A stretch of 64,000 bases of DNA from a virus (IMGVR_UViG_3300023174_000034); one strand, 5' to 3'. Shown: positions 14,804 to 45,466, counted from the first letter of the stretch. The notes: generated from the sequence alone by a model not told the origin. Made by a program: numbers and translations.

Positions 14804-15418
14804 TTAATTTTTAACATAATCTTGCAGTTCTTTCTTTTGTTGATCAGCACGTTCCTTGGCCTGCCTTCTTAGAACTAAATTGCGGTCTGCTACCTTTTGT
14901 TCATAAATTCTTTTTTCTTCCATCTGACCGTACACACCAATGCCAACCATGACAAATGCAAACACCACAACAGAGCCTGCTAGAAAATACATGGCCATCA
15001 TACCCATGTCTGCCATTTTTTTCTTGTGCGCCAGTTGACGTTCTTCTTCTGCACGTTGGGCTTCTGCACGTTCCTTGAACAGTCTGGTGCGTTCTTTGAT
15101 CATGTGTTCCCACAGTTCAGGCTTGCCCAATTGCCAAAGAATCATGTCTTTGAGATCACGTTCGGCTTGACGTAGAGCATCACTGTGCATGGCAATTTGC
15201 AGGGCTTCGTGGCCTAGTTCTGCATCTGTTTTGCCTTGTATACTAGCTTTGGCTTTTAACTTTGTTCGTTCACGATGTATGGAATCTGAACTTTCAAAAA
15301 ACTTGCTGAACTGCCCTGCAAGACTATTGATATCTTTGCCCAAGGCTATGGCTTGCTTTATGTGACTGACCGCAGATTGTGCGGCCGCGAAGGCAAGCCC
15401 GATAGTGATTGGATCCAT
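14804..15418 (-). CDS. Membrane-anchored coiled-coil protein.
   Basis: 204-aa ORF with a hydrophobic segment (MMAMYFLAGSVVVFAFVMVGIGVY) and a charged, EERQ-rich region. Confidence 0.5.
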   Translation of the reverse strand: MDPITIGLAFAAAQSAVSHIKQAIALGKDINSLAGQFSKFFESSDSIHRERTKLKAKASIQGKTDAELGHEALQIAMHSDALRQAERDLKDMILWQLGKPELWEHMIKERTRLFKERAEAQRAEEERQLAHKKKMADMGMMAMYFLAGSVVVFAFVMVGIGVYGQMEEKRIYEQKVADRNLVLRRQAKERADQQKKELQDYVKN

Positions 15419-15442
15419 AAAAATACTTATCTAAAGATTCGC

Positions 15443-15471
15443 TTGACAACAGGTGCAAATAAATATATACT
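15443..15471 (+). promoter_or_regulatory. Sigma70 promoter (TTGACA-N17-TATACT) for the tmRNA precursor.
   Basis: Near-consensus boxes about 7 nt upstream of the tRNA-like acceptor piece. Confidence 0.55.
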
Positions 15472-15477
15472 GTAGGT

Positions 15478-15543
<66 letters not shown>

Positions 15544-15725
15544 AAGGAAATTTGTGAAAAGTAAGAGTAAGTTCAGTCGTTATAATCTTAAAGGCAATAT
15601 TATGTGGTGCCTAAATTTGCGTAACGGATGGGTAAGAATTTACAACACTATGATTCGTTGGAATACCGATTGGACAACTAATTATAGATACTTTTCAATA
15701 GAACAAATAAAAGTTTCTTTATGAT

Positions 15726-15978
15726 GGGGGTGACCTGGCTTTCGACAGGGCAAAGAGTAAACAAGTGGACAGCACGGTAAGGCAGAAACCGTAGGGTTGG
15801 GGGAACTCGGCCGTAGACGCAAAAAACGTAAATGCAAAAGCAAATACAACATCTGGTGTTAAAGTAACAGTAGGCAAAGGTTTCCGTTTCGGCGGTTCCA
15901 AGTCTGCTCGCACTGAGGCAGCTTTCGCCTAAACAGCGAAACCAGCGGGGTAGGACTTACCTTGTAAAATAAACAACC
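15726..15978 (+). ncRNA. ssrA: tmRNA coding piece: 5' acceptor strand, tag reading frame 15819-15932 and 3' helices.
   Basis: Starts GGGGGUGACCUGGCUUUCGACAGGG (compare E. coli GGGGCUGAUUCUGGAUUCGACGGG). GGGGGUG pairs with CACCUCC of the upstream piece, giving a G3:U70 wobble. Resume context UAGAC-GCA (E. coli UAGUC-GCA). The frame stays open to TAA. Confidence 0.7.
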
Positions 15979-16001
15979 ATGGGCCTCCGGGCCCATTTTT
16001 C
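15979..16001 (+). terminator. Rho-independent terminator (ATGGGCCtccgGGCCCAT + TTTTT) ending the tmRNA precursor.
   Basis: 7-bp stem followed by a T5 run. Confidence 0.65.
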
Positions 16002-16002
16002 T

Positions 16003-16251
16003 ATGCTAGAATATATCTTAACCTTCCTTGCCGTGTTCTTACTGGACGTGGTCTACACATACTATCTGCGATGCGTCAAAGATGGTCGTGTGTTGATGGC
16101 CAGCGGCTGGAGTGTGGCCTGTTACATTGGTGGAAGTGTGGCAGTTATCAATTATACATCGGACCACTGGATGCTGATACCTGCGGCAATAGGCGCCTTT
16201 TGCGGAACCTATGTGGGCATGAAGATCAACGTCGCATCAGTTGATCAGTAA
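16003..16251 (+). CDS. Small membrane protein (about 82 aa).
   Basis: Two predicted TM helices. The ORF track starts at 15979 inside the terminator, so the ATG at 16003 is more plausible. Confidence 0.4.
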   Translation: MLEYILTFLAVFLLDVVYTYYLRCVKDGRVLMASGWSVACYIGGSVAVINYTSDHWMLIPAAIGAFCGTYVGMKINVASVDQ

Positions 16252-18300: not shown

Positions 18301-19185
18301 ATGCAGAAAACTTATCGTAGCATTTTTATTTCTGACGTACACCTTGGCACTCGAGACTGCAAGGCCGAGGCTCTCAACAATTTCCTTAAACACAATTCAT
18401 GTGAATCGCTTTATCTAGTGGGTGACATCATTGATGCCTGGAAGATACAGCAAAACAAATGGCGGTGGAAACAGAGCCATACCAATGTTGTGCGTAGGGT
18501 GCTAGGTCATGCCAAACGCGGTACTCGAGTTATCTATGTAGCTGGCAACCACGATGAGTTTTTACGCCCAATGATACCATATGGTTTTTCATTTGGCATG
18601 ATAGAGATACACAATCAGATAGAACACATAGGTGCAGACGGTCGGCACTATCTTGTGGTACACGGCGACTTGTTTGACGGTATCACTAGACTGGCCCCTT
18701 GGCTCAGCTTTTTAGGAGACAAAGCATATGATATCATTCTTGCGCTCAATTCAAAATTTAATTGGATCCGTCACAGACTGGGTTTTGGGTACTTTAGTCT
18801 TAGTCGTTATCTTAAGCACCGAGTAAAAAAAGCAGTAGACTTCATATTCAAATTTGAAGAAAATCTAGCAGGCTACTGCAAAAAGCGTGGCTTTGACGGT
18901 GTGATATGTGGACACATACATCATGCTGAGATCAAAGACATCAACGGTATAGTATACATGAACGATGGCGACTGGGTAGAAAGCTGTACAGCACTGGTAG
19001 AGCATCACGATGGTCGTTGGGAGATTGTGACATGGACACAGGAGAAAGACAATGTGGCTGATGATCCTGATAGCAGTACACATCAACGACCCGCAAGATC
19101 AACCCGGAAGAGTAGAAATGCAGTTTCCGGATCAGCCAACATGCCAAGCGGCATTGAGCACAATCAAGTGGCAACTAAAGTTTAA
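18301..19185 (+). CDS. Calcineurin-like metallophosphoesterase of the LpxH (UDP-2,3-diacylglucosamine hydrolase) type.
   Basis: SDVHLG, GDIIDAW (LpxH GDLFEAW), GNHDEFL and HGDLFDG blocks in LpxH order. Confidence 0.55.
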   Translation: MQKTYRSIFISDVHLGTRDCKAEALNNFLKHNSCESLYLVGDIIDAWKIQQNKWRWKQSHTNVVRRVLGHAKRGTRVIYVAGNHDEFLRPMIPYGFSFGMIEIHNQIEHIGADGRHYLVVHGDLFDGITRLAPWLSFLGDKAYDIILALNSKFNWIRHRLGFGYFSLSRYLKHRVKKAVDFIFKFEENLAGYCKKRGFDGVICGHIHHAEIKDINGIVYMNDGDWVESCTALVEHHDGRWEIVTWTQEKDNVADDPDSSTHQRPARSTRKSRNAVSGSANMPSGIEHNQVATKV

Positions 19186-20902: not shown

Positions 20903-21367
20903 ATGCCATTAGAAAAATCATCAATCACATTGGAAAACCTTGCCAGTGCCCTGGCCGGTGAAAGCCAAGCACACATCAAGTATCGCTACTTTGCAAAAAT
21001 TGCCAGAGAAGAAGGCCACGAAGAAGTAGCCCAGCACTTTGAGCACACCGCAGATCAAGAACTGTTACATGCCTGGGGACATTTGGAATTGCTAGTTGGC
21101 AAGCCAGATACTCGCAAGTGCCTGGAAATGGCCATTGAAGGTGAGACATATGAGTTCACCACTATGTATCCAGGATTTGAACAGCAGGCACGTGCCGAAA
21201 ACGATCGTACTGCACAGTATGAGTTTCGCAATCAGATTGTTGAAAGCACAGAACATGCTGAACAGTTCAAGTCAGTGCTGGCCAAAGCTGAAAAGCGTTT
21301 TGCCGCACTCAAGCGAGTTGAACAGCGTCATGCCAACGCATACACACAAGTATTGGAGAGTCTATAA
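20903..21367 (+). CDS. Rubrerythrin-like ferritin-fold diiron protein without a fused rubredoxin domain.
   Basis: ExxH-type motifs (GESQAHIKY, ELLHAWGH, EGETYEF, EHAEQF). Confidence 0.6.
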   Translation: MPLEKSSITLENLASALAGESQAHIKYRYFAKIAREEGHEEVAQHFEHTADQELLHAWGHLELLVGKPDTRKCLEMAIEGETYEFTTMYPGFEQQARAENDRTAQYEFRNQIVESTEHAEQFKSVLAKAEKRFAALKRVEQRHANAYTQVLESL

Positions 21368-31607: not shown

Positions 31608-32405
31608 ATGCGTATTTTGACTCTTTCCGTCCTTGCCGCGGCTGTGCTAGCAACAGGTTGTACTCGTATTGAAACTGGTGAAGTTGGTCTCCGTGTGGGT
31701 TTTGACAAGCAGGTCAAAACTGAGGAACTGCTCCCAGGCTCTTTTAATCAAACTATCATTGGTGATGTTATCACATTCCCAACCAAAGAGATCACTGTTA
31801 AAGTTGAAGACATGACTCCACTGGCCAAGGATAACAGCACAATGAAAGACTTTGATGCTATGATCACATACAACATCAATCAAGCACAAGTGGCTGAGAT
31901 CTACAACAGCAAGAACAAAAGTTTCCATGCCAAACACGATGGCGATGTTTACTTGATGTACAACTATGTGTTCAATGCCACACGCAATGCCATCTACAAG
32001 AGTGCTCGCAAGTTCGAAGCATTGGAAATGGGCGATGCTCGTCAAGCAATGGAAACTGAAATCAAAGAGCAAGTGATCAAGACCCTAGCAGAGGAAAAGC
32101 TAGACGGTACTATCATTATCAGCCAAGTGTTGATTCGTAACATTGTGCCTGCTGACAGTGTGGTGCTGAGTGCCAACGAATTGGTCAAGGCCAAGAACGA
32201 GTACAAGACTGAAGAAGTCAAAGTAGCCACTGCTCGCAAGCGCAACGAGTCCATGCAGGCCAACCCAATGGCAATTCCATTGCTCAAAGCCGAAGCTGAA
32301 GCAGACGCCATGCGAGCCTTGCCAAATGCCATCGCGGCCTTCAAAGGGCAGACCCTGGTGATCAATGGTGTGGTGACTCCAACTGTACAAACTAATAGCA
32401 AATAA
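31608..32405 (+). CDS. SPFH/band-7 (prohibitin/HflKC-like) lipoprotein.
   Basis: Lipobox LATGC after a signal peptide. IETGEVGLRVGF resembles the SPFH N-terminal strand. Confidence 0.55.
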   Translation: MRILTLSVLAAAVLATGCTRIETGEVGLRVGFDKQVKTEELLPGSFNQTIIGDVITFPTKEITVKVEDMTPLAKDNSTMKDFDAMITYNINQAQVAEIYNSKNKSFHAKHDGDVYLMYNYVFNATRNAIYKSARKFEALEMGDARQAMETEIKEQVIKTLAEEKLDGTIIISQVLIRNIVPADSVVLSANELVKAKNEYKTEEVKVATARKRNESMQANPMAIPLLKAEAEADAMRALPNAIAAFKGQTLVINGVVTPTVQTNSK

Positions 32406-35272: not shown

Positions 35273-35350
35273 TTGATTTTGGACAGATCAAAGGTGCTTT
35301 TGGGCACCTTTTTTCTTGACCTTTTTTGTTTATCACACTATAATAGTCAT

Positions 35351-36172
35351 ATGAGAGTAAATGTAATTTCCGATCTTCATCTTGAGTTTGGTGACCTAGA
35401 GTTGCCGGGCGGAGACGTGCTGATTTTGTCAGGCGATGTGTGCGAAAGCCGAACCTTGACCAAGTACAAGTATGACCCAATGAACGTCATGACTGAAGTA
35501 GGCAATCCCAAACGCATGGATCGTGCTCAGCGTTTCTTCTTTGAAGAATGCACCAAGTATCGCGAAGTAATCTATGTCATGGGCAACCACGAACACTATC
35601 ACGGACGCTATGACAAAACTGTGCATGAGCTCAAGGCCATGGTGCCAGACAATGTGAGTGTGCTGGAGAATGAACACATTGTGATTGACGATGTGCTTTT
35701 CCTAGGTGCCACGCTATGGACAGACTGCAACAAAGGCAACCCCATGTGTCTGCAGGTTCTCAAACATAGTATGCAAGATTACAATGCTATTACCAACAAG
35801 TATCACAACATTTATCGCAAGCTGATTCCACAAGATACCATGGAAACTCACATGCGTACCAAGGAATACTTCAAGACCATACTTGAACTAAACCGCGATA
35901 AAAAGGTTGTGGTGTGTACGCATCATGCTCCTAGTTACAAGAGTGTGCATGAGCACTATGTTCATGACGTGGATATGAACGGTGGCTATGCCAGTGACTT
36001 GAGTGAGTTCATACTTGATCACGAAAACATCAAGTTTTGGACACATGGTCACATGCACGACCCAAGTGACTACGAAATTGGTCAGTGCCGTGTGATCTGT
36101 AATCCACGTGGTTACAAAGGTTACGAGCAACAGGTAAATCTATTTGACCCCACTGTGGGATTTGATATATAA
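35351..36172 (+). CDS. Calcineurin-like metallophosphoesterase.
   Basis: VISDLHLEFG, LSGDVCE and MGNHEHY blocks. Confidence 0.65.
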   Translation: MRVNVISDLHLEFGDLELPGGDVLILSGDVCESRTLTKYKYDPMNVMTEVGNPKRMDRAQRFFFEECTKYREVIYVMGNHEHYHGRYDKTVHELKAMVPDNVSVLENEHIVIDDVLFLGATLWTDCNKGNPMCLQVLKHSMQDYNAITNKYHNIYRKLIPQDTMETHMRTKEYFKTILELNRDKKVVVCTHHAPSYKSVHEHYVHDVDMNGGYASDLSEFILDHENIKFWTHGHMHDPSDYEIGQCRVICNPRGYKGYEQQVNLFDPTVGFDI

Positions 36173-39690: not shown

Positions 39691-40635
39691 ATGATACACT
39701 GGGGGATCAACGCACTCAATCACGGCACTAGCCTGGCTGTGATCAAAGACAGCAGACTGGTACAGTTTGATTACTCACCAGCTGAACATGCTTTTGACGA
39801 ACTGAAACGACAGGCCTTGGATCATGGCGCACCAGATGTCATGTACTGGTACGAACGTCCTTGGATCAAAAAAGCACGACAACTACGTGCCGGGCAGTAC
39901 AGCGCGGCCATGGACATGAGCGTGTTGCCCAGTCAGTGGCTCAAACAACACAGACTTGGCTATGCCGGCCTGCGCTACACGCCACATCATGCTAGCCATG
40001 CCGCGGCAGGTTACTATACTAGTCCTTTCAATCACTGTGCCATTGTTGTGCTTGATGCCATTGGCGAGTTTGAATGTGCAACCATCTGGGAAGGCCTGCA
40101 TGGAGAAATGCGTAAGGTCTGGAGTGCCAGCTATCCGCACAGTCTAGGCTTGTTCTACAGCGCATTTACAAAACTGCTAGGGCTAGAGCCTATCAAGCAA
40201 GAACACATCTTGCAACAGATGTCTGCACAAGGCGACCCTGAACGTTTTTATCATGCGGTCAAACGCTACATAGACTTCACAGTTGACCTTAAGTATAATC
40301 TACATGCAGGTGTTCCAGACTGGCCACATGAGATCGAATCAGTCCAGGATGAATCGGACCTGGCGGCGGCTGTGCAACGAGTGTTTGAAGAACAGGTGTC
40401 AGCAGTGATGCTGAAAGCACGGCAACTGATAAACAGTGATTGTCTAGTGTACATGGGTGGCTGTGCCATGAACAGCCAGGCAAACGAATACGAAGTCAAG
40501 GCTTGGAAGTATGTGTGGTCGTTGCCTAACCCAGGCGACCCTAGCAGTGCAATTGGTGCTGTGCTGTATCACACCAAAGAAAGAATATGGAATTGGCAAT
40601 GGGATCCAGTAAAGCACATACAGATCAAGGTTTAG
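39691..40635 (+). CDS. Carbamoyltransferase N-terminal (NodU/CmcH, Kae1/ASKHA-like) domain protein lacking the C-terminal domain.
   Basis: HHASHAAAGYYTSPF, IVVLDAIGE, GGCAMNS and NPGDPSSAIGA match Carbam_trans_N blocks. Confidence 0.5.
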   Translation: MIHWGINALNHGTSLAVIKDSRLVQFDYSPAEHAFDELKRQALDHGAPDVMYWYERPWIKKARQLRAGQYSAAMDMSVLPSQWLKQHRLGYAGLRYTPHHASHAAAGYYTSPFNHCAIVVLDAIGEFECATIWEGLHGEMRKVWSASYPHSLGLFYSAFTKLLGLEPIKQEHILQQMSAQGDPERFYHAVKRYIDFTVDLKYNLHAGVPDWPHEIESVQDESDLAAAVQRVFEEQVSAVMLKARQLINSDCLVYMGGCAMNSQANEYEVKAWKYVWSLPNPGDPSSAIGAVLYHTKERIWNWQWDPVKHIQIKV

Positions 40636-44567: not shown

Positions 44568-45137
44568 TTGATGCAAGACCTACGTCAACTCGTTACCCTG
44601 GTAGAATCTGTCAAAGACGATCGTCGTCTAGAACAAACAGAACTGCCTTATGGGAAAAAAGACCTATACCCGGCCATAAGCGAAGACACTATCAACTATC
44701 ACTATGGCAAGCTCTACAAGGGCTATGTTGACCGTTACAACAAAGGCGAAGGCGATCCTGACTTTAACGAAGCAGGCGCCTTCTTACACGACCTGTACTT
44801 TACTCAGCTACAGGAAGTAGGCGGAGCAAATAAACCAGATGGTGCCAGCGAAGCATTGATCAACAGACGCTTTGGCAGTTTCGACAAGTTCAAGGATCAG
44901 CTTGCTGAAGAAGCCATGAAGATACAAGGCTCTGGGTGGATCTACTTGAGTCGTTCAGGCGACATCAAAACAATTAAAAATCATGAAATTAAAAAGGACA
45001 TTGCTCTGCTGATAGACTGGTGGGAGCATGCCTGGGCATTAGATTACCAAGCCGATAAGGCCAAGTACTTGAAAAACTTTTGGCGCATTATCAATTGGGA
45101 AGTTATCAATCGAAGAATTTACGGCGGAGCAAAATGA
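44568..45137 (+). CDS. Fe/Mn superoxide dismutase-like protein (divergent).
   Basis: N-terminal [29 protein letters not shown] resembles LPYAYDALEPHIS...HHxKHHxxYV. C-terminal [34 protein letters not shown] resembles [28 protein letters not shown]. Metal ligands appear retained (His in HYGK, FLHD, D/H in DWWEH). The HHxKHH block is degenerate. Confidence 0.6.
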
Positions 45138-45466
45138 CATATATTGTAGACGGTGCTTGCATCAAGTGCAAGTACCAGGACTGCGTGGTAGTCTGCCCTG
45201 TTGACTGTTTCAAAGAAGGACCAGAGTTCTTGATCATCAACCCAGACGAATGTATTGACTGTGGCGTGTGCGAACCCGAATGTCCAGCAGGTGCTATACA
45301 TCCTGATACTTACATGACTCCAGATCTGGAATATTGGGCCCGGATCAACGTTGACCTAAATAAAACATACCAACCTATCACTCGCAAAGGAGCTGTGCCA
45401 GCAGATGCTGATCATTGGAATCCCAAGTTAAATACAAGTGTAGGTAACAAAAAGGATCTATTATGA
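45134..45466 (+). CDS. fdxA: 7Fe (3Fe-4S + 4Fe-4S) ferredoxin of the Azotobacter FdxA type.
   Basis: [54 protein letters not shown] is almost motif-for-motif FdxA. ATGA overlap with the previous gene. Confidence 0.8.

Follow-up and report, generated by a model that had tools for sequence, protein, structure and literature searches.

The tags that tmRNAs append are usually viewed as short, near-universal degrons of the ...ALAA type, and the tmRNAs of phages are usually explained as additional ribosome-rescue capacity. Phage two-piece tmRNAs and tags with an A-F-A end (the latter in Mollicutes, where they are directed to Lon) are each already known. Among isolate phage genomes 53 two-piece tmRNAs have been recorded, of which 50 are marine or aquatic (PMC9004378), and a tmRNA database of 2025 lists 79 phage sequences and names 10 aa as the most frequent length of tags (PMC11915505). 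The ssrA of the OM43 phage Melnitz is of the alphaproteobacterial type and contains a glutamine riboswitch, and the paper on it describes no long or non-LAA tags (PMC9004378). The long tag of Mesoplasma florum, with its NYAFA end, is recognised by Lon and for the most part evades the proteases of E. coli (PMC9382460). No published account of long, module-bearing or AFA/LAV-ending phage tags was found in a literature survey of incomplete coverage.

The locus described here lies in a 64-kb stretch of viral DNA, referred to as the window. The window encodes rIIA, rIIB, an ATP-dependent DNA ligase and large virion proteins, which identify it as phage DNA, and two of its structural proteins are nearest to those of T4-like cyanophages (43% identity to S-CAM1, together with a short baseplate match). 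Its source is a large T4-like aquatic phage. No close relative was found among GenBank phages, no photosynthesis genes were found among the window ORFs scanned, and a blastn search of GenBank phage genomes with the window tmRNA matched only the T-arm of other phage tmRNAs. Auxiliary genes are present at 20903–21367, 31608–32405, 39691–40635, 44568–45137 and 45080–45466, the products at these five loci being a rubrerythrin, an SPFH/Band 7 protein, a carbamoyltransferase, an Fe/Mn superoxide dismutase and a 4Fe-4S ferredoxin; two calcineurin-like phosphoesterases are encoded at 18301–19185 and 35273–36172.

The sole gene that ARAGORN reports for the window is a permuted tmRNA (15450–16023) with the tag AKANTTSGVKVTVGKGFRFGGSKSARTEAAFA (32 aa). 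The Rfam family RF04321 (tmRNA_permuted) matches 15481–15932 over model positions 1–213 and scores 96.6 bits, where the gathering score is 47; it gives 96.8 bits when a sub-region of the window is scored. ARAGORN, Rfam and the sequence agree on the permuted order, in which the CCA end (15542) stands upstream of G1 (15726). The gene had been recognised as a tmRNA in the original prediction, in which its two-piece organisation went unnoticed. The acceptor stem of 7 bp pairs GGGGGUG (15726–15732) with CACCUCC (15532–15538) and contains the alanine identity pair G3:U70 (15728:15536); in two relatives (L203/L204) the stem reads GGGCCUG/CAGGUCC, a double compensatory CC/GG change that keeps G3:U70. 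With a sigma-70-type promoter from which transcription is expected to start near 15478, and with an intrinsic terminator at the other end, 15478–16000 (start approximate) is predicted to be transcribed as one unit that yields a circularly permuted tmRNA (ssrA) of the phage. The features of the locus are collected in Table 1.

Table 1. Predicted features of the permuted tmRNA gene, in window coordinates.
Feature	Position	Strand	Basis or remark
Promoter, sigma-70-type TTGACA-17-TATACT	15443..15471	+	11/12 consensus positions
Acceptor piece: 3' strands of P2, T-arm, 3' acceptor strand, ACCA	15481..15542	+	Rfam, ARAGORN
T-arm stem	15515-15519/15527-15531	+	Rfam alignment
Encoded ACCA	15539-15542	+	Rfam alignment, ARAGORN
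Intervening segment, 183 nt, presumably removed in maturation	15543..15725	+	Holds 56-aa ORF
Spacer ORF, 56 aa, GTG start	15554-15724	+	AAGGA at 15544-15548
Coding piece start: 5' acceptor strand and 5' strands of P2	15726..15772	+	Rfam, sequence
Structured region, PK1 position	15775..15812	+	Covariation, 10 sequences
4-bp helix, PK1 position	15775-15778/15788-15791	+	Covariation
7-bp hairpin, GGAA loop	15795-15801/15806-15812	+	Covariation
A-rich single-stranded linker, 21 nt	15813..15833	+	Includes frame-setting UAAAU 15829-15833, A at -4 = 15830
Tag reading frame: resume GCA 15834-15836, 32 codons AKANTTSGVKVTVGKGFRFGGSKSARTEAAFA, stop TAA 15930-15932	15834..15932	+	
Stop-codon hairpin: UUUCGC 15923-15928/GCGAAA 15936-15941, UAA in loop	15923..15941	+	
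Conserved hairpin GGGGUAGGACUUACCUU, then GUAA motif	15947..15963	+	
Intrinsic terminator, 7-bp stem and T run	15979..16000	+	Compensatory change in L203/L204

The two helices at the PK1 position are supported by comparison of 10 related sequences, in which 98% of the cells are paired (18–51% in slid controls) and four pairs have changed on both sides. A second stem that would complete a true PK1 pseudoknot was looked for in the window scaffold and not found; on the commoner phage tmRNA scaffold a GCGAU/AUC..GC pairing is possible for PK1, which is a replaceable element in E. coli (PMC2481249). Further downstream, covariation between the last codons of the tag and the equivalent of the stop-codon hairpin is seen across about 100 phage tmRNAs, and a minimum free energy fold of 15800–16000 gave no hairpins beyond those already found. 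A twister-P3 ribozyme match at 15885–15943 (+) reached 18.8 bits, where the gathering score is 39.9 (E 0.62 on 701 nt), and was judged to be due to chance; this weak match spans the GGSKS codons, and GCGGUUCCAAGUCUGC is near the consensus of that family.

Of the described systems, the two-piece tmRNA of beta-proteobacteria (formerly beta_tmRNA in Rfam, now in RF04321), seen here in Alcaligenaceae, is likewise permuted, with an encoded CCA and UGAUGGGG before G1, and its PK1-to-resume block is near-identical (GGUAGGCGAUGACCGUAAAUCAAGCAAA....UAAAUGCAAA), followed by a stop-codon hairpin and a terminator. The bacterial tag, however, is the 10-aa ANDESYALAA, whereas that of the window has 32 aa and ends in AAFA, and the window gene differs further in the extra hairpin that replaces the second PK1 stem and in its ORF-bearing spacer of 183 nt. 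Like the window phage, Melnitz and the pelagimyophages are large aquatic myophages in which an early-type promoter precedes a complete permuted ssrA (PMC9004378). The glutamine riboswitch (glnA RNA) of the Melnitz gene had no Rfam match in 15400–16100 of the window, either at the gathering threshold or at E<=1.

The reading frame that had been drawn from GCA 15819 is open as described, with 37 sense codons (AKNVNAKANTTSGVKVTVGKGFRFGGSKSARTEAAFA) before the TAA at 15930–15932 and the same translation. An open run of 37 codons has a chance of about 0.17 (3 stops among 64 codons); the length of the frame alone is thus not beyond chance, and its reality rests on the tmRNA context and on conservation of the frame in related phage contigs. 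This context agrees with the proposed messenger-like domain of a phage tmRNA, since the frame is located between the structured region and the stop-codon hairpin and outside any pseudoknot. The resume codon is placed elsewhere, as both ARAGORN and the Rfam alignment, in which the consensus UAAaUGCaAAC is aligned to 15828–15838, choose GCA 15834 over GCA 15819. Both codons share one frame and are preceded by U at -5 and A at -4, the latter being the main frame determinant of the resume codon in E. coli (PMC2481249), so that the window sequence alone is ambiguous and the relatives decide. Resumption at GCA 15819, which would add a 37-aa tag AKNVNAKANTT...AAFA, agrees with the frame in the window and with the preceding UAGAC, which resembles the UAGUC of E. 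coli with its A at -4 (PMC2481249), but is contradicted by the relatives. L203/L204, whose tag is identical but for one substitution (T6Q), have a 1-nt deletion between the two GCAs, as a result of which the upstream one reads GCA AAA AAG TAA and the 32-codon frame is intact; L432, L434 and L436 likewise have the upstream GCA out of frame, an in-frame TAA separates both GCA sites in L109, L114, L184, L162 and L196, and the GCA-to-GCA spacing is off by 1 nt in many other relatives. On the commoner scaffold, moreover, the base at -4 of the upstream GCA is U. Because the upstream GCA is out of frame or stopped in tag-bearing relatives, the tag is predicted to start at 15834 and to comprise 32 aa; resumption at 15819 as the main start is scarcely credible, and minor use of that codon may occur in the window phage.

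The motif GUAAAU-GCA (window 15828–15836), the best-conserved feature, is kept in more than 130 of about 140 phage relatives (exceptions: GCAAAU, CUAAAU, ACAAAU and GUAAAC), a proportion to be read with the fact that most of them were retrieved by a pattern requiring TAAATGCAAA; relatives retrieved independently mostly keep it as well. In relatives with ordinary tags this motif begins ANDEQFALAA, ANDSVYALAA and similar tags. The tag that had been called unusually long remains long at 32 aa, not 37, the first five codons (AKNVN, 15819–15833) being part of the non-coding linker; a resume codon much further downstream, with a short tag, had been named as the refuting outcome, and the shift by five codons still leaves 32 aa. 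Its Lys/Gly-rich composition and AAFA end were as stated. The tmRNA identity, the resume codon and the tag as given here can jointly be assigned with high confidence. For annotation the lesson is that rival resume codons which share a frame are separable only by comparing relatives.

Nine distinct tmRNAs of the AFA subtype were retrieved from viral contigs of up to 168 kb with degenerate DNA patterns for the core. Their tags conform to the consensus A(K/N)(A/T)(N/S)T.SG.KVTVAKGFRFGGSK(V/S)A.TEAAFA (31–33 aa), with a KGFRFGGSK core that is invariant in all nine, an AAFA end in eight (EFA in the other one) and indels that are all in frame. The codons of the core vary (GGT/GGC/GGA, CGT/CGC, AAG/AAA and TCC/TCT/AGC, the last including a switch between Ser codon families), and RNA-level constraint could lie behind part of the nucleotide conservation of KGFRFGGSK. 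The pN/pS ratio is 0.27 for the last six codons and 0.6–0.7 for the whole tag, which indicates that parts of the peptide evolve freely. In the sister class, represented by AKANTGEVTVSGKNVKFSARTAQRQSLAV and relatives ending in LAV, FAV or QLA, the core VTVSGKNVKF has a pN/pS of 0.25. An AlphaFold2 single-sequence model of the tag, examined for a beta-hairpin in the extension, showed no secondary structure.

Beyond this subfamily, an exact-pattern scan of viral contigs found at least 120 with a tmRNA of this type, nearly all permuted. Tag lengths are bimodal among the 82 unique phage tags listed, with 48 of 10–14 aa, 34 of 23–32 aa and none between, counts that depend on the search patterns, refer to the matches listed and do not represent population frequencies; the window tag is the longest of these. 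LAA, VAA, MAA or IAA forms the C-terminus of 68 of these 82 listed tags (LAA in 56), and the ends LAV, FAV, QLA and AFA are limited among them to the AFA subfamily and its sister class. In many long tags an extension precedes an ordinary tag that is itself complete, for instance ANDNAFDFTAMSFTGNTV-ANDSKFALAA, and the FDFSAMSFTGNTV extension of long tags has a pN/pS of 0.30. The window tag, which starts with AKANTT, lacks both the N-terminal A-N-D-E/D-x-Y/F segment and the canonical L/V/I/M-A-A C-terminus, and its local alignment with ANDESYALAA or ANDENYALAA is no better than that of shuffles (p 0.47–0.75).

These data bear on the view that the tag is functionless, ribosome release being sufficient and the long frame a drifting neutral template or part of a decaying tmRNA. 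Such a view agrees with the finding that alterations of the E. coli tag template can leave rescue little affected (PMC2481249) and with the ratio of 0.6–0.7 over the whole tag. It is nevertheless improbable in the light of the invariant core, the AAFA end, the synonymous variation with Ser family switches and the in-frame indels, to which the covariation of the last codons with their hairpin partner and the gap between the two length classes of the 82 listed tags can be added. The AFA-subfamily peptide, including its AAFA end, is, judging from these patterns, under selection and not in decay, and the purifying selection on this conserved hydrophobic C-terminus speaks for a signal that is recognised and against a neutral tail. 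That the locus is a functional two-piece tmRNA with a selected 32-aa tag starting at 15834 is likely.

The segment between the two pieces of the gene has its own coding content. The ORF in the window spacer begins 12 nt past the CCA, behind AAGGA, and encodes a conserved basic, Trp-rich protein, MKSKSKFSRYNLKGNIMWCLNLRNGWVRIYNTMIRWNTDWTTNYRYFSIEQIKVSL, of a type (56–62 aa) that is also present in L422–L427 and L157. At least six more phage tmRNA genes, which differ in tag and scaffold, have this ORF in their spacers, and it was seen inside tmRNA spacers only; no Pfam or PHROG family was found for it. Its pN/pS is 0.32, one indel of 6 nt is in frame, and variable columns are concentrated at third codon positions (18 vs 10 and 7 at the others). 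Small ORFs (>=20 aa) behind a Shine-Dalgarno-like motif occur in 22 of 99 unique phage tmRNA spacers, their TGA often overlapping the conserved UUUGAUGGGG before G1, and among the recurrent families (L082, L113 and L094; L120, L130 and L135; L118 and L119; L136) are small transmembrane peptides (MFENWHWVYMWGI..., MNDDLTPLAIGVVVVLVVFALVLL) and a Cys-rich protein of 86 aa.

When window 15440–16010 was aligned with L157, L077 and L204, the spacer of the window proved common to L157, whose tag is ANDEQFALAA on the other scaffold, and the mature RNA and tag of the window are found in L203/L204 with an unrelated spacer. This sharing suggests that the phage tmRNA gene is a mosaic of three modules (acceptor piece, spacer, and coding piece with its tag cassette) formed by modular recombination. 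Short and long tags alike occur on both RNA scaffolds, the one that has the extra hairpin and the one that lacks it. In L082 (4740–5580, -) a methionine aminopeptidase-like gene is located between a truncated duplicate of the acceptor piece and an intact tmRNA gene, and its insertion looks like one that duplicated its target. A metagenomic permuted tmRNA in L302 (418–795, -), with the tag ANNIVSFSRQRVPVAA, has an apparent complete tRNA gene in its intervening segment. Contig AG-345-P14 was examined for a tmRNA and had none, and a search of the flank of one relative's contig returned collagen-like repeats as the sole match.

Phages do acquire tRNA and tmRNA genes, and the locus might accordingly be a recently captured host ssrA that is passively carried, its tag being the host's own. 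A scan of the genomes of 185,579 bacterial species for the phage-type RNA sequence pattern makes this very improbable, as the permuted form, in every case with ANDESYALAA, was found only in Alcaligenaceae and a small number of unclassified Proteobacteria MAGs, and the one long-tag match was a short, phage-like contig binned as Bifidobacterium. Long-tag genes, furthermore, are spread over many viral contigs and show phage-type mosaicism. Alcaligenaceae loci (Advenella, Pelistega and Oligella; L205–L300, e.g., L210, L217 and L244) are the sole bacteria with a genus or family assignment that share the phage-type PK1-to-resume block, and the resemblance raises the question of possible gene flow between Alcaligenaceae and phages. 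Eight contigs from Thor-/Promethearchaeota MAGs also match the tmRNA-derived pattern (L206, L213, L220, L227, L233, L246, L270 and L274); these Asgard contigs share the frame A(N/K)F.PQ.GNRTQQ.GYDIYS, and ARAGORN finds no tmRNA there.

Capture from a host could also draw on the weak resemblance of LAV-class relatives to the tag ANNIVRFSRQAAPVAA, which we take to be that of the picocyanobacterial two-piece tmRNA. This tag, of 16 aa, is abundant in metagenomes; it contains the motif V(R/K)FS(A)R, in which it resembles LAV-class phage tags (VKFSAR vs VRFSR, shuffle p ~0.003–0.03), and its RNA is permuted, but the RNA scaffold is clearly different and has no encoded CCA. Mimicry of ANNIVRFSRQAAPVAA by the window tag was considered and is rejected as an explanation of that tag, the similarity being non-significant (p ~0.15); the likeness of the LAV class is suggestive. 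A tblastn search of GenBank phage genomes that used the 29-aa LAV-class tag of L198 as query, and not the AFA tag of the window, found no match. Tags of 21 aa ending in ...QAVAFA were seen in the genome scan in bacterial MAGs of Bacillales, Bacilli and Clostridia. These and the Mollicutes-type tags resemble the window tag in exceeding the 10-aa norm and in their A-F-A end; they differ in belonging to one-piece tmRNAs of unrelated sequence, and no similarity was seen in the remaining part of the tag.

As expected from membership of this RNA family, the precursor would be cut after the CCA (15542) and before G1 (15726), the acceptor and coding pieces would pair into an alanine-accepting tRNA-like domain, and the AlaRS, EF-Tu and SmpB of the host would bring the RNA into stalled ribosomes. 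Translation would then resume at GCA 15834, four bases past A 15830, and end at the UAA (15930) in the hairpin loop, so that AKANTTSGVKVTVGKGFRFGGSKSARTEAAFA would be appended, adding 33 residues when the tmRNA-borne Ala is counted with the 32 of the tag. The conserved non-polar ...EAAFA-COOH end could remain a C-terminal degron with an altered protease preference, by analogy with the ...YAFA tag of Mollicutes, which is read by Lon and not ClpXP, and the conserved strand-like aromatic/basic extension VKVTVGKGFRF could offer a protease or adaptor a further site of recognition. This combination, a degron of altered specificity with a second recognition element in its extension, is a serious candidate, to which we give somewhat less than an even chance.

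A different proposal is that the tag is a phage-specific signal other than a degron, which would protect rescued chains from the ClpXP of the host, jam a protease by means of a Gly-rich 'slippery' tract or hand the product over to a phage factor. Several traits fit such a signal, namely a C-terminus that is not LAA, an N-terminal part that is not of the AANDENY type, the richness in Gly and Lys, and the exchange of tags as cassettes on two RNA scaffolds, which suggests selection on tag identity. A dedicated partner, however, did not appear. Clustering of the ORFs within 4.5 kb of 125 loci revealed no gene (adaptor or protease) linked to long-tag tmRNAs, their neighbours being clade-specific only, and no genes for SmpB, an SspB-like adaptor, Clp or Lon were found among about 55 window ORFs scanned. 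Many long tags, moreover, end in a complete ...FALAA degron, which suggests that the extension adds to degradation, and a signal other than a degron is unlikely. Among the clade-specific neighbours at these 125 loci is a cold-shock protein, whose CspA-like gene adjoins the tmRNA about 0.5 kb upstream in 13 long-tag loci (L102 and 12 others) and in none with a short tag; it is probably a clade marker.

The preferred reading thus remains that of a degron with altered specificity. Given that a 32-residue tag is conserved in relatives and ends in AAFA instead of LAA, what becomes of unfinished proteins is probably determined by the phage in a manner of its own. A broader and more tentative proposal, which we consider possible but doubtful, is that three-module mosaic genes, with a micro-protein gene in the spacer and an exchangeable cassette for tags of the long class (23–33 aa, extension plus degron, here with an AAFA end), redirect rescued truncated proteins during infection, for example by a switch from ClpXP to Lon or to a partner of the phage's choice. 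If true, such reprogramming would be a so far undescribed form of viral control over host protein quality control.

Widespread phage tmRNAs bear selected long tags that form a separate length class, some of them with ends other than LAA (AAFA, LAV). If the tag does redirect or modulate proteolysis, it would provide a direct, testable handle on how stalled ribosomes and truncated proteins are managed by large phages once these have shut down host mRNA, and it could also yield new orthogonal degrons.
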